Positions 8,477-60,242 of a stretch of 60,242 nucleotides of DNA are shown piece after piece. A program made the translations under genes and the position numbers. The stretch is from an uncultured Candidatus Saccharibacteria bacterium (GTDB lineage Bacteria > Patescibacteriota > Minisyncoccia > Minisyncoccales > CG1-02-41-26). The notes below the pieces were generated by a model, which saw only the letters and a list, made by a program, of their open reading frames with translations, did no database searches and had not been told where the DNA came from. The DNA lies in NCBI GenBank assembly GCA_964383715.1, contig CAYLHU010000001.1, positions 17,733 through 77,974 of the forward strand, in the 5' to 3' direction. The stretch's first letter is position 1. The number at the start of each line of letters is the position of its first letter.

Positions 8477-9106
8477 ATGGTTAAAAAAGTTAAAAGAAAA
8501 AGTTTATCTTCACCAAAGCTTCCGCCTTTGCCAAGGATTCCACTTTCGTCAGAGCTTCCACCTTCGTCAGAGCTTCCACCTTCGTCAGAGCTTCCGCCTT
8601 TGCCAGAGCTTCGGCCTTTGCCAGAGCTTCGGCGGACAAGTCGGCGGACAAGTCGGCGGACAAGTAAGCGAACAATAAAGAAGAAAAAAAGAGAAGAAAC
8701 TGATATCCAAAAGATTGTTAATCATTATTTTCAAACGAAAGGTTTTAGCTTAGAAAAAATAAAGAAAGACGCCAAGAAAAAGAAAATTATCTATTCCCGT
8801 TTTACTCGGCCGGCGAAACAACTTTTAGAATTGGCTGGTTCGGTTAAAAAAGCCCAAAAAGCGATTGATATTGTTGCCGGCTGGGCAAAATCAAGAAAAT
8901 TGGATTATGCGATTGAAACCGTTTTTAAGAAATGGTTAGAGATTGATAAATTAAAACCCAAAGAAATAGTCAAAAAGCCCTTTTTTGAGAATAAGCCGAT
9001 GGTTTGGTCGGGAAATTGGAAAAAATGGTATGTTATTGACGATAGTGGCGACTGGTTAGAGTTTGTCGGCGATGAAAAAAGCATTGAATGGCGGAAAATG
9101 AAATAA
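8477..9106 (+). CDS. Hypothetical protein with a tandem-repeat N-terminus
   Basis: The N-terminus reads LPPSSE x3, then LPPLPE/LRPLPE, then RRTS x3, encoded by 18-nt and 12-nt DNA tandem repeats. The C-terminal part is basic and has no recognisable family. Confidence 0.5.
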   Translation: MVKKVKRKSLSSPKLPPLPRIPLSSELPPSSELPPSSELPPLPELRPLPELRRTSRRTSRRTSKRTIKKKKREETDIQKIVNHYFQTKGFSLEKIKKDAKKKKIIYSRFTRPAKQLLELAGSVKKAQKAIDIVAGWAKSRKLDYAIETVFKKWLEIDKLKPKEIVKKPFFENKPMVWSGNWKKWYVIDDSGDWLEFVGDEKSIEWRKMK

Positions 9107-9654: not shown

Positions 9655-9922
9655 CTTACGAAGTAAGGGTTCGTTGGAGATGAAGCTTTAGCTTCATCGA
9701 CTATACACCGAGCTTTTGCGAAGTAACTCAAAGATTTTTTTCAAAAATCTTTTCCACTCACCCTTGCTTTGCAAGGGTTCGTAAGCGAAGGTAATGCGAT
9801 GAAAGATTACTTTCATCTTAACTCGCTCACAAAATGAGCCCGTAGATGAGAGCGAAGCTCTCATCGCCTACGAGCCCACGAAGTGGGCGAGTCAAGATGA
9901 AGACGAAGTCTTCATCGCCTAC
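9655..9922. repeat. Hairpin-element array
   Basis: gatgaagctttagcttcatc (9679-9698), gatgaaagattactttcatc (9798-9817), gatgagagcgaagctctcatc (9845-9865), gcccacgaagtgggc (9874-9888), gatgaagacgaagtcttcatc (9896-9916), plus the composite accgagcttttgcgaag... module. Confidence 0.9.
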
Positions 9923-13690: not shown

Positions 13691-13833
13691 ATATTATATT
13701 CGTTACCCCTCTATTTTTATTATAACCCTATTTCCCAAAATCCCAAATAAAAAACAACAGGGTTAAACCGTGTTGTTTTTTAATAGTTTGAGTATAGGAT
13801 GGCGTTAGGACTTGTTTGAAAAATAATTAGATT
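13691..13833 (-). repeat. Terminator-plus-promoter module, copy 1 (long form)
   Basis: Near-identical to 15731-15873, and in its core to 14983-15071. Read on the minus strand it holds a hairpin terminator (aacagggttaaaccgtgtt plus a T-run), then TTGGGA-16 nt-TATAAT directly upstream of the FKBP gene. Confidence 0.8.
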
Positions 13834-13850
13834 TTTTTTAATTTATTTTA

Positions 13851-14982: not shown

Positions 14983-15071
14983 ATTATATTCATTAACCCT
15001 CTATTTTTATTATAACCTTATTTCCCAAAATCCCAAACAAAAAACAACAGGGTTAAACCGTGTTGTTTTTT
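14983..15071 (-). repeat. Terminator-plus-promoter module, copy 2 (short form)
   Basis: Core of the module, including the hairpin and the TTGGGA/TATAAT promoter. Lies directly upstream of the Cys-rich ORF and downstream of hicA. Confidence 0.8.
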
Positions 15072-15078
15072 CTTTTTC

Positions 15079-17140: not shown

Positions 17141-17419
17141 AAATACTATTTTATCTACTTTCAGTATAATCCTATTTTTCGAAGAATCCAAACAAAAAAT
17201 CGCTTGAATAAAAAAACGATTTGTATTTGTTGCGGAGCTTGGATTCAGACACCGAGTTTTTGCGAAGCAACTCAAAGAGATAAATCTCTTTTCTACTTTG
17301 CACTTTTGCTTCGCAAAAGTTTAAGTAAGTGAAGGTAAAGATGAATGCGGAGCATTCATCGCCCTTCGGGCTTTGTTCAAGATGAATGCTTGCTATTCCG
17401 TAGCCTTGGCGAAGGATAG
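17141..17419. repeat. Hairpin-element array, left flank of tRNA-Gln
   Basis: Contains the composite module accgagtttttgcgaagcaactcaaaga..., gatgaatgcggagcattcatc (17339-17359) and agcccttcgggct. Confidence 0.85.
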
Positions 17420-17490
17420 TTGCGGGGCTAGGACTCGAACCTAGATAGACAGCTCCAAGGGCTGTTGTCCTACCGTTAGACGACCCCGCA
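17420..17490 (-). tRNA. tRNA-Gln (anticodon UUG)
   Basis: Cloverleaf folded by hand. It has a U1-A72 pair, T arm CTAGG-TTCGAGT-CCTAG and anticodon arm ACAGC-CCTTGGA-GCTGT. The loop appears to have C at position 33. Confidence 0.75.
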
Positions 17491-17728
17491 TTAGGAAGTG
17501 AATAAGTGGATAAGTGGGGGCGATGAAGGAGTACCTTCATCTTGACTCGCTCACTTCGTGGGCTCGTAAGTGAACAAGTGGGTAAGTGGGTAAGTGAAGG
17601 CGATGAATACTCCGCATTCATCTTGACCCGCCCACTTCGTGGGCTCACGGGCGATGAATGTTTCGCATTCATCTTGACTCAACCCTTTGGGTTTCGTAAG
17701 TGAACAAGTGAGCACTTGAGCACTTAAA
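17491..17728. repeat. Hairpin-element array, right flank of tRNA-Gln
   Basis: Three units of gcgatgaNNN-loop-NNNtcatcttgac, each followed by a gcccacttcgtgggc-type UUCG hairpin. aagtg-rich words lie between them. Confidence 0.85.
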
Positions 17729-19100: not shown

Positions 19101-19142
19101 ACTATCATTATAATCTTATCATAAAACTTGTCAAGGTCTAAA

Positions 19143-19176
19143 AATGACGGGGTCAGACCCCGTCATTTATTTTGAA
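19143..19176. terminator. Bidirectional hairpin (atgacggggtcagaccccgtcat) flanked by A- and T-runs
   Basis: Perfect 10-bp stem. It belongs to a recurrent family (28300, 28410, 45155, 45465, 46005, 47695). Confidence 0.6.
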
Positions 19177-19223
19177 AAAGTCCAGTTGTTGAAAACTTAA
19201 ACAGATTGGGTTAAGATGGGTTA

Positions 19224-28252: not shown

Positions 28253-28339
28253 ATTATTCTTTCATTCTAACAAAAAAAACCTTTTTTGGAAACAAAAAAA
28301 TGACGGGGTTAAACCTCGTCATATTCTCGCCAGATTTTT

Positions 28340-28373
28340 GTTACACTTTAGGACGATCGTTCTAAAGTGTAAC
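28340..28373. repeat. CGATCG-centred palindrome (gttacactttaggaCGATCGttctaaagtgtaac)
   Basis: 17-nt arms with one G.T position. Flanked by two atgacgggg...gtcat hairpins. Confidence 0.8.
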
Positions 28374-28456
28374 AACTCTTTTTATGCTCGAATAAAAAGA
28401 GTTTAAAAAAAATGACGGGGTTAAACCCAGTCATTCTCCGTCATTTTTTTTCAAAG

Positions 28457-31514: not shown

Positions 31515-31601
31515 ACGAAGCCCGAAGGGCTGAGTTAAGATGAATGCGGAGCATTCATCGCCTGCAAATGAGCAAAGTGAGCTCGTCGAAAAGAGAAGTG
31601 C
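31515..31601. repeat. Hairpin elements between mraZ and rsmH
   Basis: agcccgaagggct (31519-31531) and gatgaatgcggagcattcatc (31539-31559). The latter is identical to the copy at 17339. Confidence 0.85.
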
Positions 31602-37765: not shown

Positions 37766-38126
37766 ATTTAGGTGCGTTTTGGGACGATCGTCCTAGAATG
37801 ACCTTTTTCCCCCTTTTTCTCCCTTTTTTGCCTATATCTATCTATTTATTTATTTTATAACAAATCCTGACGATCGGCGATATTTGTTATAAAATGTTTC
37901 TTTTGCCTTATCCTGTCTATCTTTACATTTGGGTGCGTTTTGGGACGATCGTCCTAGAATGACCTTTTTCCCCCTTTTTCTCCCTTTTTTGCCTATATCT
38001 ATCTATTTATTTATTTTATAACAAATCCTGACGATCGGCGATATTTGTTATAAAATGTTTCTTTTGCCTTATCCTGTCTATCTTTACATTTGGGTGCGTT
38101 TTGGGACGATCGTCATAGAATGCACC
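37766..38126. repeat. 161-bp tandem repeat, about 2.2 copies
   Basis: ggtgcg starts at 37771, 37932 and 38093, giving a period of 161. Each unit holds a CGATCG-centred palindrome and the hairpin ttttataacaaat-[cctgacgatcggcgat]-atttgttataaaa. Confidence 0.9.
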
Positions 38127-38218
38127 TGAATTTGTTGAGAGAAAAATTAAGAGAGAAGTTTTTTATTTAACGGAAATTGTTCAAAAATTTATTTTTATTA
38201 GTTTTTATTTTTTCGCTA

Positions 38219-45658: not shown

Positions 45659-45928
45659 TTAATTAAGTCCTCGACTTTTATATTTATTTTTAATAATGAG
45701 AATCCCACTAACGATTAACATAGCACCAATTGAAATTGATAAAAGGGTGTTAGGATAATAAAAATAAGCTACTCCTACTATCTTCTCAGCTCCCACTGCA
45801 GGTAAACGAAGACCATAGCTAGTTCTATAGGAAAAGCCAAAAATGTTATATGCACAAAGTCCTGTGCCAATTATAATCATTATTGCTCCTAAGTATTGTT
45901 TTATAAATTTCTTAATTTTTTCTCTCAT
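45659..45928 (-). CDS. Small membrane protein (hypothetical)
   Basis: The start at ATG 45928 (MREKIKKF) is preferred. The sequence upstream of it is a duplicated non-coding leader, also found upstream of the DUF3800-like gene. Confidence 0.45.
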   Translation of the reverse strand: MREKIKKFIKQYLGAIMIIIGTGLCAYNIFGFSYRTSYGLRLPAVGAEKIVGVAYFYYPNTLLSISIGAMLIVSGILIIKNKYKSRGLN

Positions 45929-46207
45929 AAATTTATTTTTCGCTCTTTCTTTTAAAATACTCCCTTTTTCATCTTTTATCAATCCTTTTGGAGAAGAATA
46001 AAAGATGACTGGGTTAAACCCAGTCATCTTTTGTCGTTGTCCACTAACATTAAATTACCGGGGTCAGACCTCGGTATTTTAATAATATGATAAAATTTGA
46101 GCGAAGCGAAAATTTGCAGCAGGGGCGGCAGGGCGCTACGAGATAAATCTCGTCTTTCCCTTTGCCCTACCATAAAATAAAAAACACATTTAGTGTTTTT
46201 TATTTTA
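45929..46207 (-). repeat. Duplicated leader module, copy L
   Basis: Aligns with 47619-47949, apart from an extra roughly 50 nt in copy R. It holds two hairpins and a 17-nt fragment of the tRNA-Trp 3' end (46117-46133). Confidence 0.85.
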
Positions 46208-46283
46208 TGGCAGGGGCGGCAGGGATCGGACCTGCAACCTTTGGTTTTGGAGACCAATGCTCTTCCAGTTGAGCTACACCCCT
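46208..46283 (-). tRNA. tRNA-Trp (anticodon CCA), copy 1, CCA encoded
   Basis: AGGGGTGTAGCTCAACTGGAAGAGC, anticodon arm TTGGT-CTCCAAA-ACCAA, and 3' end CGCCCCT-G-CCA. The T-loop reads TCCGATC, so C sits at the usually invariant U55 position. Confidence 0.8.
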
Positions 46284-46310
46284 AATTTTTCATAAAATTA
46301 TAATATTTTC

Positions 46311-46661
46311 TTACGCTTCTTTGTCTTTCTTTAAGTTAGCGCAATAGGCAAAATGAAAAAAATACTTGTCTAAGTCCTTTAAAGAGCTTTTATATTCTTT
46401 TCCTCCCGAAATTGCATCTAAAAAAACTTCTCTGGCTCGAGCAATTTCTCGCAATCGTTCTATCCAACGGGGGTCCCCTAATGTTAGGTCAAAAAGTTCA
46501 AGGGTTCGAGACACGGCATTTTTGAAGTTATCTTGATTTTCATTTTTCCAGCGAAGCACTCTACTCACTTCGCTCCCGATATTCCCGAGTTGCTCACAAA
46601 GAGAAAGATTTTGCCAACCTCCCGAAGATAATTCTTTATGAATGGATTTATAATTTTCCAT
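46311..46661 (-). CDS. Hypothetical all-alpha protein, paralog 1 (possibly MazG-like NTP-PPase superfamily)
   Basis: About three quarters of residues are identical by eye to 48050-48400. The motif CEQLGNIGSEV weakly resembles the MazG EExGE helix. Confidence 0.5.
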   Translation of the reverse strand: MENYKSIHKELSSGGWQNLSLCEQLGNIGSEVSRVLRWKNENQDNFKNAVSRTLELFDLTLGDPRWIERLREIARAREVFLDAISGGKEYKSSLKDLDKYFFHFAYCANLKKDKEA

Positions 46662-46767
46662 CTAATTAATAATTAATTTATTAACGATATTTTTTATTTT
46701 TTCTTTTGACATAATTTTTGAGTTAGTTTGATTTAAGAGCTTTTATTTTGATTTTAGTAATTTTGGG

Positions 46768-46795
46768 CTTGACAAGGTTATATAAATTACTATAC
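46768..46795 (+). promoter_or_regulatory. Sigma70-like promoter overlapped by a perfect inverted repeat
   Basis: TTGACA-16 nt-TATACT. The palindrome tactatact-gta-agtatagta (46787-46807) covers the -10 box and the likely start site. Confidence 0.5.
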
Positions 46796-46815
46796 TGTAA
46801 GTATAGTATTGAGAA

Positions 46816-46855
46816 AGGGCGTCGGCTCGATTGGCCGATGGCCCTTTTTCTTTTT
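46816..46855 (+). terminator. Intrinsic terminator, stronger in the plus orientation
   Basis: gggc-gtcggc-[tcgattg]-gccgat-g-gccc followed by tttttcttttt. On the minus strand the trailing run is only tttctc. Confidence 0.6.
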
Positions 46856-47618
46856 ACTCTAATTTACTATCGTCATGATGAAAATGAATGTTAAAAGTAT
46901 AATTTCTAAAATTATTCGTTAGTGTTTTGACGCCTAAATTCTCCTTAAATCTTTCCACGAATTTTCCTTTATATAAAGATGGTTTATCAATAATTTTTTC
47001 TTTAAGTAGTAGTTCATAGTTTATTGAACCAATTAACAAATCTGTTAATTGTAATAAGTCATTTGTTTTTGAATCCAAACGGCAAACTCCGGCAATGGCT
47101 AATCTTTTAAACTTGTTATTTACGCTATTTTTAACATTAACCTCAAACTTTATAATTTTTGGTGCAGTCATATCATCTGCTAAAACTATTAAAACCTCGT
47201 TTTTGCCTAAATTTCCTATTAATAATTGTTTAACGATTTGCTCATAAGCAATCCAAGGATTTTCGTTAAACTCTTTTTTGAAATACTCACTTCTCTTGTC
47301 TATTGTATAAGAAGCAAATTTCACACTTTTTGTTTCAAATAAAGTGTCCAAAACTTCTGATGCAATATTTATTTTAACTTTATTCAGATTATTAAATTTC
47401 AATTCCCACCAAAACCTATTTTTAGACCTAATATATTTTATTTTTTGTTGCAGGTAATATGGTTGTGAGCATTTTATCATTCCAACCGTAAAATACGGTT
47501 GGCTTTTTATGTCTAAAGTTCCTGATTCGTCAATAAAACAAAAAGGTGTCCAAATATTTTTATAGTCAGCTAAAGCTAATGCTTTATTTGTTTCTTTTTT
47601 ATTAAGATTATCAACCAT
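46854..47618 (-). CDS. DUF3800-like protein
   Basis: N-terminal FIDESG and C-terminal DSKTNDLLQLTDLLIG match the DUF3800 pattern as I recall it. Confidence 0.6.
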   Translation of the reverse strand: MVDNLNKKETNKALALADYKNIWTPFCFIDESGTLDIKSQPYFTVGMIKCSQPYYLQQKIKYIRSKNRFWWELKFNNLNKVKINIASEVLDTLFETKSVKFASYTIDKRSEYFKKEFNENPWIAYEQIVKQLLIGNLGKNEVLIVLADDMTAPKIIKFEVNVKNSVNNKFKRLAIAGVCRLDSKTNDLLQLTDLLIGSINYELLLKEKIIDKPSLYKGKFVERFKENLGVKTLTNNFRNYTFNIHFHHDDSKLE

Positions 47619-47949
47619 AAATTTATTTTTCGCTCTTTCTTTTAAAATACTCCCTTTTTGTCTTTTATCAATCTTTTTAGAGAAGAATAAAAAATGACTG
47701 GGTTTAACCCAGTCATTTTTTGTCGTTGTCCTACCAGTATTAAATTACCGGGGTCAGACCTCGGTATTTTAATAATATTATAAAATTTGAGCGAAGCGAA
47801 AATTTGCAGCAGGGGTGGCAGGAGGCGATGAGAACGAAGTTCTCATCTTGACTTCTCGCTACGCTCGTCGCGTGCTACGAGATAAATCTCGTCTTTCCCT
47901 TTGCTCTACCATAAAATAAAAAACGCATTCAGCGTTTTTTACTTTTCAG
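47619..47949 (-). repeat. Duplicated leader module, copy R, with an inserted hairpin element
   Basis: Same as copy L, plus an insertion at about 47823-47875 that contains gatgagaacgaagttctcatc. The tRNA 3' fragment lies at 47807-47822. Confidence 0.85.
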
Positions 47950-48022
47950 CAGGGGTGGCAGGGATCGAACCTGCAACCTTTGGTTTTGGAGACCAATGCT
48001 CTTCCAGTTGAGCTACACCCCT
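47950..48022 (-). tRNA. tRNA-Trp (anticodon CCA), copy 2, no encoded CCA
   Basis: Same sequence as copy 1 except for a canonical TTCGATC T-loop, a T6-A67 pair in place of T6.G67, and a 3' flank of CTG instead of CCA. Confidence 0.85.
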
Positions 48023-48049
48023 AATTTTTCATAAAATTATAATATTTTC

Positions 48050-48400
48050 TTACACTTTTTTATCTTTTTTTAAGTTAGCGCAATAGGCAAAATGAAAGAA
48101 ATATTGTTCTAAGTCCTTTAAGGAACTTTTGTATTCTTTTCCTCCCGAAATTGCGTCTAAAAATACTTCTCTAACTCGACCGATTTCTCTCAATCTTCCT
48201 TTCCAACGAGGGTCATCTAATGTTAAGTCAAAGAGTTCTAATGCTCGTTCAACTGCACCCCGAAAAAGATTTTTGTCTTTTCCTTGCCACCTATATGCTC
48301 TGCCGACTTCACTCCCGATATTCCCGAGTTGTTCGCAAAGAGAGAATTTTTGCCATTTTCCTGAATATAATTCTTTATGAATGGGCTTATAATTTTTCAT
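48050..48400 (-). CDS. Hypothetical all-alpha protein, paralog 2
   Basis: The start at MKNYKPIH (48400) gives a length matching paralog 1 and avoids overlap with the upstream MazG gene. Confidence 0.5.
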   Translation of the reverse strand: MKNYKPIHKELYSGKWQKFSLCEQLGNIGSEVGRAYRWQGKDKNLFRGAVERALELFDLTLDDPRWKGRLREIGRVREVFLDAISGGKEYKSSLKDLEQYFFHFAYCANLKKDKKV

Positions 48401-48444
48401 TTTACTATTTTTAAAAAAACAAAGGGAATAATTGCAAACATTAC

Positions 48445-48783
48445 TTACTCGTTCCAATCTTTTCTTTTGTTTTTTTTGGCGGTTTCTTTAGAAAAACCTT
48501 TAGGGTGTCTTTTTTGAAGTTTTTTTATATTTTCTTTTAAAATATCCTCTATGTCCCAACCGAAGAAATCACAAATCATCGCCACATACCATATAGTATC
48601 TCCTAAATTTTCTCTTATCCCATTTTTTTGATTATCTTCGTGAGAAAATGTTTTTTTAATACAACCAGCAACATCTCCAGCTTCTCCCGCAATTCCCAAT
48701 CCCCAAGTTAGAATCTCTTTTTCTTTGTTTTCAAATTTTTTAGCAGTTTTTTTACAAAGTTTTTGATATTCTTTTAATTTCAT
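48445..48783 (-). CDS. mazG: MazG-like nucleotide pyrophosphohydrolase
   Basis: GLGIAGEAGDVAGCIKK ... LGDTIWYVAMI ... NIKKLQKRHP. Confidence 0.7.
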   Translation of the reverse strand: MKLKEYQKLCKKTAKKFENKEKEILTWGLGIAGEAGDVAGCIKKTFSHEDNQKNGIRENLGDTIWYVAMICDFFGWDIEDILKENIKKLQKRHPKGFSKETAKKNKRKDWNE

Positions 48784-49496: not shown

Positions 49497-49757
49497 ATGA
49501 AATACCCGGAAAGTTTAGTAAAGAGGATCAGGGAAGAGTTCTCAGAAAAACATCTTCTGTTCGCGTTAGATCAGCAGAATACTCGCTTCGTGAGTGTCTT
49601 CCTCGAAGATAATTGTCAAGACGGCTTTGATCTTTTGGCCGAAAAAGTCCTTGTCGCTCTAAATGAAGGTGACTTGTTGATCATTAGGGAAGCGGCAGAG
49701 AAAGCGATCCGTCGAAAAAAACTTTATGAAGATTGGTTAAAGTATCTTCAGGAGTAG
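49497..49757 (+). CDS. Small hypothetical protein (86 aa)
   Basis: Own canonical promoter, strong SD and a plausible terminator (about 49790-49822). More G+C-rich by eye. Confidence 0.5.
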   Translation: MKYPESLVKRIREEFSEKHLLFALDQQNTRFVSVFLEDNCQDGFDLLAEKVLVALNEGDLLIIREAAEKAIRRKKLYEDWLKYLQE

Positions 49758-49834
49758 TAAATATCAACTATTCGGCATTAACTACCCTATGGCCCTGCGA
49801 TAACATCAACGGGCTTTTTCATTTCGTAGTTTTT

Positions 49835-50035
49835 AATTATTTACGAGTTTTTGCGAAGCAAGTCAAAGATTTTTTTTCAAAAATCTTTTCCACTCACTTG
49901 CTCCGCAAGTTCGTAAGCGAGTCAATCGATGAGGGTTCCACCCTCATCTTTACAAGCTCACTTTGTTCGCTTGTAGATGAAAGTACTCTTTCATCGCAAA
50001 TCACTGACATTCTAACATTCCAACAATTCCAATAT
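49835..50035. repeat. Hairpin-element array downstream of rpmG
   Basis: The composite module acgagtttttgcgaagcaagtcaaaga...tcttttccactcac is shared with 9705-9790 and 17250-17330. Also gatgagggttccaccctcatc and gatgaaagtactctttcatc. Confidence 0.85.
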
Positions 50036-50040
50036 TTCCC

Positions 50041-50202
50041 CTACTTCTTCCCTTCCTTATGTAAAACATGCTTCTTGCACCACTTGCAAAACTTCTTCAG
50101 CCCTAATTTTTCTTCAACTCCTTTTGATTTGTTGACCCTATAATTAACTCTTTTACATTCAGAGCATTGGAGTTTTATAAAGGGTTTCTTTTTTTTAGCC
50201 AT
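50041..50202 (-). CDS. rpmG: 50S ribosomal protein L33, absent from the ORF track
   Basis: My translation is MAKKKKPFIKLQCSECKRVNYRVNKSKGVEEKLGLKKFCKWCKKHVLHKEGKK. It has the CxxC...CxxC zinc ribbon and the LELKKFC-like motif typical of L33. Confidence 0.85.
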   Translation of the reverse strand: MAKKKKPFIKLQCSECKRVNYRVNKSKGVEEKLGLKKFCKWCKKHVLHKEGKK

Positions 50203-50319
50203 AATTTTTTAATTATTTACCCAAACAAAGTGAAATGTGAAAAAAGATACTATGAGATCTTGTCTTATCTTGTCTCGCCTACTATGCGGGATTATAAACA
50301 AAGTTCTCTTATCATTATA

Positions 50320-50392
50320 AGCCGAGACGCGGGGTTGAACCGCGGACCTCGTTATTACCAATAACGTGCTCTACCAACTGAGCTATCTCGGC
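50320..50392 (-). tRNA. tRNA-Thr (anticodon GGU)
   Basis: GCCGAGATAGCTCAGTTGGTAGAGC, anticodon arm CGTTA-TTGGTAA-TAACG and T arm CGCGG-TTCAACC-CCGCG. Confidence 0.85.
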
Positions 50393-50448
50393 AGATAAAT
50401 AAAAAGATTATTTATCATTTATTAATAATCATTTATTAATAATTATTA

Positions 50449-50533
50449 TGGGTGCGGTCGGAGTCGAACCGACGGGGCTCAAAAGAACAACTGTTTTACA
50501 GACAGATCCCACCCCCTATGGGACTACGCACCC
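50449..50533 (-). tRNA. tRNA-Tyr (anticodon GUA), long variable arm
   Basis: GGGTGCG acceptor, anticodon loop CTGTAAA, a long extra arm and T arm GTCGG-TTCGACT-CCGAC. Confidence 0.8.
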
Positions 50534-51193
50534 ACGAGCGATTATATACGAAAGCTTTGCTTTCGTATATAATCGCGAGTTAAGATGAAAGTAATCTTTC
50601 ATCGCCCACAAACTTATAATTATGAAAACTTTTTTTCATAATTATAAGTTTGTCAAGATGAGGGTAATCCCTCATCGCTATCGAGTGGTTAATTATGAAA
50701 GAGTTTCTTTCATAATTATAGGTTTATGAAGATGAGGGTAATCCCTCATCGCTAACGCTCGAACAGGCAAGAGCAATGAATGCTTCGCATTCATCTTTAC
50801 TCAGCCCTTCGGGCTTCGTTCAAGATGAGGGTAATCCTTCATCGACCGAGACTTCGCTTCGCGAAGTCGAAGGTGGAAAAGAGAACGGAGTTCTCTTTGA
50901 CTATAATCGAGTTTACGAAGCATTCAATGAAAACTTTCTTTCATAATTATAAGTTTGTCAAGATGAGGGCGGAGCCCTCATCGCTAACGCTCGAACAGGC
51001 AAGAGCGATGAATGCTTCGCATTCATCTTTACTCAGCCCTTCGGGCTTCGTTCAAGATGAGAGTAATCTCTCATCGGCCGAGACTTCGCTTCGCGAAGTC
51101 GAAGGTGGAAAAGAGAACGGAGTTCTCTTTGACTATAATCGAGTTTACGAAGCACTCAATGAAAACTTTGTTTTCATATCTAATCGTGAGTCA
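50534..51193. repeat. Largest hairpin-element array, containing a 232-bp tandem duplication
   Basis: At least 12 distinct hairpins. gctaacgctcgaacagg starts at 50751 and again at 50983. Eight GATGA...TCATC-type stems. Confidence 0.9.
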
Positions 51194-51916
51194 TTATAAA
51201 ATTATTTTACTATGCTTGTCTCTCCATTCCTTAATTTTTTTATGGTCGCCTGATAATAAAACTTTTGGCACTTGCCACTTCTTCTTTTTAAGAGAGTTTA
51301 TAAAAACTTCAGGTCGGGTATATTGAGGATATTCTATAAACCCTTTATCTTTACTTATTCTCTCTTTTAACAATTCCGGTTTACCAATAACTCCCGGCAA
51401 TAATCTAACCACGGTTTCAATTAACACCAAGGAAGCCAACTCTCCTCCCATCAAAACATAATCCCCTATTGAGACCTCTTCGTCAGTAATATACTTAGCC
51501 ACCCTTTCATCAATCCCTTCATAACGGCCGGAAATCAAAATTAATTTGTCATATTGGGAAAACTTCGTAGCCATTTTTTGATTGAATTTCTTCCCCCGTG
51601 GCGTAAATAGAATTATTTTTGATTTTTTGTTCTTAATGGTTCGGCTTTGCTCACCATCAACCCTGAGCGAAGTCGAAGGATTATTTTTTAGTTTTAAAGA
51701 TTGAATACATCGATAAATGGGTTCAATTTTGATAACCATTCCCCTACCTCCGCCGAAGGGCTTGTCATCCACTGTTTTTCTTTTATCCTTAGAAAAATCC
51801 CTCAAATCGTGAATCTTGATTTTAACAATTTTCTTATCCCTAGCTTTTTTAAGAAGCGATTGATTCAAATAAAAATCAAAAATCTTTGGGAAAATTGTAA
51901 TAATATCAATGTCCAT
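51194..51916 (-). CDS. trmD: tRNA (guanine37-N1)-methyltransferase TrmD
   Basis: DIITIFPKIF, GGGRGMV and SGRYEGIDERV. The start at MDIDII (51916) is preferred. Confidence 0.88.
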   Translation of the reverse strand: MDIDIITIFPKIFDFYLNQSLLKKARDKKIVKIKIHDLRDFSKDKRKTVDDKPFGGGRGMVIKIEPIYRCIQSLKLKNNPSTSLRVDGEQSRTIKNKKSKIILFTPRGKKFNQKMATKFSQYDKLILISGRYEGIDERVAKYITDEEVSIGDYVLMGGELASLVLIETVVRLLPGVIGKPELLKERISKDKGFIEYPQYTRPEVFINSLKKKKWQVPKVLLSGDHKKIKEWRDKHSKIIL

Positions 51917-59897: not shown

Positions 59898-60242
59898 ATG
59901 GTAATAAAAATTAATACTATTCGGCATTCTCTATCCCATATTCTCGCTTATGCGGTTCAGGAATTATATCCCGGAACCAAGTTTGGCATTGGTCCTGCTA
60001 TTGAAAATGGCTTTTATTACGATTTTGATATGATAAACTCGATTGCTTTAGATTCTTTGCCAAAAATTGAAAAAAAGATGAAAGAGCTGATTAAAAAGGA
60101 CATTAAGTTCAGAAAAAAAATCGTATCTCGAACAGAATCTAAAAAAATATTCAGGAACCAACCGTATAAATCGGAAATAATTAAGGACTTGATAAAGGGC
60201 GATGAAGCTAAAGCTTCATCTTCCCCCCTCGCTAACGCTCGG
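59898..60242 (+). CDS. thrS: Threonine--tRNA ligase, 5' part, running off the window; no N-terminal TGS domain
   Basis: I translated from the ATG at 59898: MVIKINTIRHSLSHILAYAVQELYPGTKFGIGPAIENGFYYDFD. This is the ThrRS editing-domain signature. Confidence 0.85.
   Translation, partial: MVIKINTIRHSLSHILAYAVQELYPGTKFGIGPAIENGFYYDFDMINSIALDSLPKIEKKMKELIKKDIKFRKKIVSRTESKKIFRNQPYKSEIIKDLIKGDEAKASSSPLANAR

Follow-up and report, generated by a model that had tools for sequence, protein, structure and literature searches.

A single hairpin repeat unit distinguishes two paralogous tRNA-Trp leaders in a CPR bacterium

Results

Two paralogous leaders differ by one complete repeat unit

Two paralogous leader regions, here called L and R, differ by the gain or loss of exactly one repeat unit, without target duplication. 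The extra 49 nt of copy R form one complete unit to within 1–2 nt. With a probability of roughly 0.6, we interpret this segment as a whole unit of a lineage-specific, non-coding family of extragenic palindromic repeats of the REP/BIME/BOX-like kind; the family is new in sequence and host, not in kind.

The window, i.e., the whole stretch of 60,242 nt that was analyzed (referred to as 60 kb), has a G+C content of 34%, is chromosomal and is rich in housekeeping genes. Its ORFs include DnaB, DNA polymerase III alpha, tRNA synthetases, ribosomal proteins, MraZ/MraW, PBP, TrmD and RNase III (Pfam). Homologs of the 116-aa protein encoded at the locus come from sources named Parcubacteria, Patescibacteria, Paceibacterota, Sungbacteria or Azambacteria, which marks the organism as an uncultured CPR bacterium. 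All genes around the indel locus lie on the minus strand, in the following order of transcription:

minus strand, first in transcription order, before the 116-aa gene R: MazG-like gene
48457..48050, minus strand: ORF of the 116-aa gene, copy R (116 aa as called in the strain contigs)
47949..48022, minus strand: tRNA-Trp(CCA), copy R, followed by leader R
47619..47948, minus strand: leader R, between tRNA-Trp R and the DUF3800 gene, paralog of leader L
47618..46854, minus strand: DUF3800 gene, 3′ of leader R and before the second 116-aa gene
46661..46311, minus strand: 116-aa gene, copy L, with a protein 75% identical to that of copy R
46208-46283, minus strand: tRNA-Trp, copy L, followed by leader L
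45929-46207, minus strand: leader L, paralog of leader R
45928 (start), minus strand: 89-aa membrane-type ORF, 3′ of leader L

Read on the minus strand, leader R consists of an AT-rich terminator hairpin, a small resident hairpin, the extra unit, a copy of the tRNA 3′ end, a second hairpin, a terminator (47721-47689) and a promoter-like site (47671-47644). A block of ~740–790 nt comprising the 116-aa gene, tRNA-Trp and the leader has been duplicated and flanks the DUF3800 cassette on both sides (45929-46668 and 47619-48407). Identity is 92–94% over tRNA, leader and the 3′ portion of the 116-aa gene, and the remaining gene is far more diverged (proteins 75%). This pattern suggests either foreign DNA integrated by homologous recombination or partial gene conversion.

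The leaders were compared in a MAFFT alignment of 45900-46320 with 47590-48070, which was then re-counted. They share 260 matches with 18 mismatches (93.5% identity), and are separated by two 1-nt indels and one 49-nt block, the sole large difference between them:

47823..47871, plus strand: extra segment, copy R only; 49 nt, AGGCGATGAGAACGAAGTTCTCATCTTGACTTCTCGCTACGCTCGTCGC; one complete GATGA unit with hairpin, TTGAC linker and a tail of ~20 nt
46127..46140, plus strand: empty site, copy L; GGCAGG followed by GCGCTACG, with the junction between 46132 and 46133

The presence or absence of one discrete segment between the paralogous leaders, as proposed in an earlier note on this DNA, is thus confirmed by the alignment. 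The note had placed the segment at 47823-47875; its left end was correct, its right end 4 nt too long, as the block ends at 47871. The pairwise alignment, which the note had suggested for defining the ends, revealed neither ragged boundaries nor a larger deletion in L. The junction is ambiguous by 1–2 nt: either 49 nt were inserted, followed by one C/T substitution, or a 50-nt unit (47824-47873) was inserted with a change of GC to A. No useful microhomology was found at the indel junctions. The note had further reported cgctacg/gctacg at both junctions and considered a short target duplication. This was mistaken, as GCTACG occurs inside the segment (47858-47863) and to its right (47874-47879), and the left junction 47822/47823 reads GGCAGG on one side and AGGCG on the other, without a GCTACG repeat.

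In all 14 contigs inspected from separate ENA, JGI and Logan assemblies, the R site is filled and the L site is empty, with identical sequence at both. Since 14 independent contigs share this state, the indel is not an assembly artifact, and the difference is real and fixed in the sampled population; no polymorphism at the L/R locus was seen among them.

The unit is built around a conserved hairpin

The unit of copy R is composed of four elements:

47824-47826, plus strand: GGC, 5′ of the unit hairpin
47827..47847, plus strand: unit hairpin with a 9-bp stem (GATGAGAAC/GTTCTCATC) and a GAA loop; the stem is predicted by RNA folding
47848..47852, plus strand: TTGAC linker, conserved after the hairpin (TTGAC, TTAAC or TTTAC across the family)
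47853..47873, plus strand: unit tail, TTCTCGCTACGCTCGTCGCGT; a near-identical tail, TCCTCGCTACGCTCGTCGT(T/A), closes array units elsewhere

The general plan is therefore GGC, 9-bp hairpin, TTGAC and a tail of ~20 nt (19–21 nt in R), with a total length of 47–56 nt. The R segment begins at the unit start GGCGATGA and finishes at CGCTCGTCGC(GT), which is also the end point of units of the same subtype in the tandem arrays of related contigs (L028/29, L037, L042, L049). Because units with R's CTCGCTACGCTCGTCG tail repeat in related contigs with a period of 47–56 nt, the 49-nt indel equals one whole unit.

A covariance model (R1) was built from 26 other units, leaving out the R unit. It recovered the R unit at 47824-47852 on the plus strand with 41.1 bits (E 5e-12; minus strand 23.3 bits), so the earlier identification of the segment as a canonical GATGA hairpin with a TTGAC flank is upheld by a model that had not seen it. 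For the exact 21-mer pattern with up to three mismatches, shuffled sequences give an expectation of 0 matches. The lower five stem pairs (GATGA/TCATC) and the flanks GGC and TTGAC are invariant, whereas the upper pairs vary yet remain complementary, so that only the stem base and its flanks are fixed in sequence (GGC-GATGA...TCATC-TTGAC). Covariation was assessed in a 16-sequence alignment of the 9-bp stem against 500 shuffles and slid controls. In this alignment 99.3% of the cells are paired, and the upper four pairs contribute 24 double-sided changes. No shuffle out of 500 reached this level, and only 30–56% of the cells were paired in the slid controls. In unrelated GC-rich contigs, chance matches to the pattern are without inner pairing and reach just 28–29 bits with model R1. 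Because the stem covaries and chance matches lack inner pairing, we conclude that hairpin formation is under selection. Wobble and mismatch positions, read directly from the sequences, show no strand preference, which argues against a strand-specific RNA function.

The family recurs between genes throughout the window

A regular-expression survey combined with model R1 yielded ~21 family copies in the window, in both orientations and nearly all intergenic:

9795..9919: three-unit cluster (9795-9822 plus, 9842-9868 minus, 9891-9919 minus), including an inverted doublet (model R1)
17335..17678: four units flanking tRNA-Gln (17335-63 minus, 17519-46 plus, 17599-627 plus, 17650-78 plus; model R1)
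31534..31562, minus strand: solitary unit filling a short intergenic gap (model R1)
49925..51075: ~ten units beside tRNA-Thr and a probable tRNA-Tyr, combined with further palindromes in tandem repeats of 74 nt and 232 nt
60198..60225, plus strand: weaker unit at the window edge (21.7 bits, model R1)

Many unit clusters adjoin tRNA genes. The last two units of the tRNA-Gln cluster (17599-627 and 17650-78) are in tandem, 51 nt apart, and a related arrangement is found in contig L047. Inverted doublets occur (9795/9842, 49925/49973, 50957/51004); head-to-tail arrays and singletons are at least as common. GTAG precedes only the units 9842-68 and 9891-9919. The 5′ flanks read RGGC or AGC, the R unit is preceded by GGCAGGA, and no conserved insertion motif was found at the 5′ flanks of solitary or first units. 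With ~21 copies in both orientations between unrelated housekeeping genes, the units are dispersed repeats and not a regulatory sequence specific to this locus, which supports the earlier view that the element is not just conserved regulatory sequence.

The window contains further repeats. The non-coding stretch 50582-51178, upstream of the probable tRNA-Tyr, combines GATGA units with an AT-rich palindrome and other hairpins, and is organized in a 74-nt repeat (2.4 copies) and a 232-nt tandem duplication (2.1 copies, 93% matches). The tRNA itself (50448-50534, minus strand) was called by ARAGORN as an 87-nt tRNA-Phe(AAA), and its Rfam tRNA score is weak (35.8 bits). Since the syntenic gene of relatives, directly before tRNA-Thr(GGT), is tRNA-Tyr(GTA), and the anticodon loop in the window contains GTA, it is probably a miscalled tRNA-Tyr. 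A non-coding 161-nt tandem repeat (37766-38127; 2.2 copies, 98% matches) contains the palindrome GGGACGATCGTCC, and related palindromes lie at 13846 and 28335. Heptamer runs, AAGTG(R)(R)/TAAGTGG, are located between tRNA-Gln and the GATGA units (17545-17600 and 17680-17720) and are conserved in L047:2140-2170 beside tRNA-Gln(CTG). The 18-nt and 12-nt periodic repeats at 8508-8675 fall within the ORF 8477-9106 and probably encode a repetitive stretch of protein. Two more families of terminator-like hairpins with near-identical members, TGAC(N)GGGTTAAACCC(N)GTCA and TTACGGAGGTCAGACCTCCGTAA, are distinct from the GATGA units; the hairpin at 46004-46028 may have been counted as a GATGA hairpin in the earlier note. 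Terminator-like hairpins are located at these sites:

13749-13787, 15039-15077, 19139-19177, 28295-28445, 46000-46038, 47689-47727: terminator-like hairpins, first list
12820, 45155, 45465, 46052, 47742: terminator-like hairpins, second list

Tandem arrays outside the window differ by whole units

To describe the family beyond the window, a strict unit pattern (GGCGATGA-N10-11-TCATCTTRACTC) was used. Among 185,579 GTDB species-representative genomes it gave three chance matches, none of them in CPR, and the ten matches in IMG/VR viruses were all chance hits without inner pairing. JGI metagenomes contained 36 loci, ~25 of which are low-GC contigs of the sample series that also provided the strain contigs. 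In the related low-GC contigs, model R1 added 68 matches at E up to 1e-6, some of which overlap each other. Thus, the family is narrowly distributed, being present in the host chromosome and a few close relatives of the same sample series.

In these contigs, two to seven units are arranged head-to-tail with a period of 47–56 nt. The units of the arrays L028/29, L037, L042 and L049 carry the tail TCCTCGCTACGCTCGTCGT(T/A), almost identical to TTCTCGCTACGCTCGTCGCGT of the R unit, and several carry CTCGCTACGCTCGTCG. One orthologous array comprises three units in L044 and two in L030 and L034, an exact 56-nt indel between contigs that are 96–99% identical, as read from short-read metagenome assemblies, in which tandem repeats can be collapsed. 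The arrays lie between co-directional, ordinary housekeeping genes, 20 of them antisense and 13 sense relative to the flanking genes. The contigs L035, L039, L049 and L058 end inside GATGA arrays, which probably break the short-read assemblies of these genomes.

The unit abuts a copy of the tRNA-Trp 3′ end

Three small features surround the indel:

47809..47822, minus strand: direct copy of the tRNA-Trp 3′ end, copy R; 14 nt, CCTGCCACCCCTGC on the minus strand, abutting the extra unit
46119-46133, minus strand: direct copy of the tRNA-Trp 3′ end, copy L; 15 nt, contiguous
47877..47892 (R) and 46138-46153 (L), plus strand: resident small hairpin ACGAGA-TAAA-TCTCGT, common to both copies

Each tRNA-Trp is trailed by a direct copy of its own last 14–15 nt, 92 nt (L) and 141 nt (R) downstream, comprising the 3′ strands of the T-stem and the acceptor stem. 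The two tRNAs differ at one base, which is G in L and A in R, and this difference is mirrored in their downstream copies. Such copies are absent from all other tRNAs in the window and from relatives. They may be the scar of an integration event at a tRNA attachment site, with the sequence homogenized inside each unit.

In R, the repeat unit splits the tRNA-end copy after nucleotide 14, and the 15th base (G, 47872) comes after the insert. As the copy is contiguous in L and split in R, insertion into R is slightly favored over deletion in L; this argument concerns one base, with a chance expectation of 1 in 4. Nine relative loci keep the order of a gene for the 116-aa homolog followed by tRNA-Trp. 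They are without a leader or tRNA-end copy and contain no units except for weak matches in L020, and since the leader is lacking altogether, they cannot polarize the indel.

The resident hairpin shares GCTACG...CTCGTC with the unit tail. It could be conceived as a degenerate unit, making R a two-unit array, but this idea was demoted: with filters off and a threshold of E up to 10, model R1 does not detect the resident hairpin, and a GACGAGA/TCTCGTC variant elsewhere does match (L047:2278-2306, 24 bits). In the predicted RNA fold of L, an 8-bp stem (GGUAGGGC/GCCCUGCC) encloses the resident hairpin (z −3.4). This stem is gone from the minimum-energy fold of R, and it was dropped as part of a structured RNA for that reason. 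Because the R fold loses the closing stem, the unit does not fit into a conserved RNA as an additional arm.

The neighboring DUF3800 protein has 254 aa, and its cassette spans 46769-47620. Beside the gene lies a convergent small transcription unit on the plus strand, with a promoter (TTGACA-16-TATACT, 46769-46796) and a terminator (46820-46840). Together they form a portable cassette which recurs in L076-L079 in a different gene context, where the proteins cluster at 90% identity or more and the downstream hairpin and promoter are conserved. The protein matches the PADLOC candidate defense family PDC-M04A (E 3e-24), and the arrangement resembles that of a toxin gene with an antisense RNA.

Discussion

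Origin of the difference between the leaders

If the segment is, as we favor, a unit of a REP/BIME/BOX-like repeat family, the indel would have arisen after the duplication of the ~740-nt block, or in the donor of one of its two copies. The units would then behave as selfish or structural repeats at the DNA level, with the hairpin as the recognized feature. They may multiply with the help of an enzyme that is specific for hairpins, acts on single-stranded DNA and causes no target site duplication, or by in-register recombination or slippage. Because one-unit changes occur inside tandem arrays, a change of unit number by recombination or replication is as viable as transposition. At R itself, slippage between neighboring units is poorly supported, since the adjacent resident hairpin is not recognized by the family model. 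The enzyme search covered the window and scattered related contigs. No RAYT, transposase or integrase was seen among the ORFs beside arrays, nor, for either of two batches of window ORFs, among the 25 best Pfam families. The earlier note had taken the indel as direct evidence that the element inserts or excises as a discrete unit. A change by a whole unit is what we observe; we found no evidence for transposition in the strict sense, as no target site duplication, shared terminal inverted repeats, target motif or transposase was found at the sites and ORFs considered here.

That copy L instead lost its unit from a filled ancestral leader, through precise deletion by recombination, replication slippage or enzyme-mediated excision, is a possible though unlikely course of events. 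One-unit losses or gains do occur in arrays, GCTACG...CTCGTC in both the unit tail and the resident hairpin offers some local homology, and the direction is not fixed by an outgroup, as relatives at 70–78% protein identity are without the whole leader. However, there is no direct repeat at the junction long enough for slippage, the neighboring hairpin is not recognizable as a family unit, and a deletion must recreate the 15th matching tRNA-end base in L by chance. We are more doubtful about a stronger version of mobility, in which GATGA units are an undescribed hairpin-recognized mobile DNA of CPR bacteria, copied as single units of 47–56 nt, with no duplication of the target, into new intergenic sites and into head-to-tail arrays by a nuclease of the HUH type or another one specific for hairpins, and favoring the surroundings of tRNA genes and tRNA-end copies.

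A functional role of the unit in leader R is improbable. It might act as a protein-binding hairpin, as a transcription or processing signal, or as a piece of leader RNA controlling the DUF3800 gene, and the two leaders would then be regulated differently. The strict conservation of lower stem and flanks, with an upper stem that needs only pairing, is what one expects of a protein-recognized hairpin; many clusters adjoin tRNA genes, and R drives a candidate defense gene while L drives a small membrane protein. Against such a cis-element, units face either way relative to transcription (20 to 13), form tandem arrays of identical copies and separate unrelated housekeeping genes, wobble and mismatch positions favor neither strand, neither an Rfam family nor a promoter or terminator call was obtained at the unit, and its insertion weakens the 8-bp closing stem predicted for L. 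The least probable model is that of the earlier note, a miniature transposable element moving by cut-and-paste or copy-and-paste and duplicating the short target GCTACG. The discrete presence or absence of the unit and the dispersal of the family to many intergenic sites would agree with it. Nevertheless, the GCTACG copies at 47858 and 47874 both miss the left junction, terminal inverted repeats common to the family and conserved flanks at other solitary units are lacking, no transposase lies beside the arrays or among the best-listed Pfam families of the window, and head-to-tail arrays of identical units are not expected from MITE insertion.

Several other element classes were considered and rejected. 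In a CRISPR array the spacers would differ, but here the whole period of 47–56 nt is conserved, including the would-be spacer (the tail), and it is the upper stem and loop that vary. An intrinsic terminator was discarded as the terminator scan finds the neighboring hairpins but not the unit, which is followed by TTGAC and the tail rather than a T run. A small ORF starting from the ATG inside GTCAAGATGA is unconserved and soon meets a stop in the arrays, and a sigma-70 promoter using TTGAC was dropped since a consensus scan placed no −10 box at a suitable distance. Orientation, copy number or context spoke against a boxA-like antitermination signal, DNA-uptake sequences, integron attC sites and type III antitoxin arrays. 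DUF3800-associated motifs are among the described structured RNA families. In Rfam 15 only tRNAs reach gathering scores; permissive scans of the two leaders (E up to 10) and of the 49750-51250 cluster and the L037 array (E up to 0.5) gave nothing relevant.

Bacteria of the CPR (Patescibacteria) have small genomes, for which streamlining is the usual description. With ~21 hairpin copies per 60 kb and arrays of up to seven units, the family provides concrete, searchable REP-like repeat dynamics in CPR. The L/R pair and the array with three versus two units are usable strain-typing markers and an entry point to what amplifies the units. The L/R indel shows that units come and go whole, not how; as a single indel it is modest evidence and reveals no new mechanism.

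Comparison with known repeat families

The closest parallels are the REP/BIME elements of Enterobacteria and Pseudomonas, moved as REPINs by RAYT. Like the GATGA units, they are short (~30–50 nt), high-copy, extragenic imperfect palindromes, which conserve the stem base and vary the remaining stem with compensation. Both are found singly, as inverted doublets and in tandem clusters that include other short motifs, and both are lineage-specific in sequence and lack target duplication. In contrast, GTAG, the context in which RAYT recognizes and cleaves, is conserved 5′ of the REP hairpin but precedes only 2 of the ~21 window copies; REP is paired with a single-copy gene for RAYT, a Y1 HUH transposase, which REPs typically flank, whereas none was found in the available DNA; BIME arrays alternate in orientation, whereas GATGA arrays run head-to-tail in one orientation; and the host is a CPR bacterium. 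Among the papers listed in our literature search, none pairs REPIN/RAYT with Patescibacteria or Parcubacteria, and nothing relevant on REP, REPIN or MITE in Patescibacteria was found.

Miniatures derived from IS200/IS605 (PATEs) share the logic of DNA hairpin recognition in place of terminal inverted repeats, and likewise cause no target duplication. The clean presence or absence of 49 nt fits them, but the resemblance is one of logic only: a PATE carries a pair of dissimilar subterminal hairpins and enters DNA on the 3′ side of a fixed tetra- or pentanucleotide, whereas GATGA units have one conserved hairpin, and neither a fixed 5′ target motif nor a TnpA/Y1 transposase was seen in the DNA available here. 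As for MITEs, whose copies have terminal inverted repeats and are flanked by target site duplications, 47822/47823 compared with 47871/47872 reveals no duplication; the ends of the R unit, GCGATGAG and CTCGTCGC, can pair, but the same does not apply across the family.

BOX elements of Streptococcus pneumoniae (boxA-boxB(n)-boxC) and the MIRU-type minisatellites of mycobacteria are, like the GATGA units, modular, intergenic and non-coding. All have modules of ~45–55 nt whose tandem copy number varies among loci and strains, and stable hairpins are predicted. GATGA units differ from them in lacking sequence similarity and fixed A and C end modules, in a unit number ranging from 1 to at least 7 and in tails which differ between loci. 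Whole-unit copy differences, as known from BOX elements and minisatellites, are found here in the arrays of two to seven units, in the array with three versus two units (both in short-read assemblies) and in the L/R pair.
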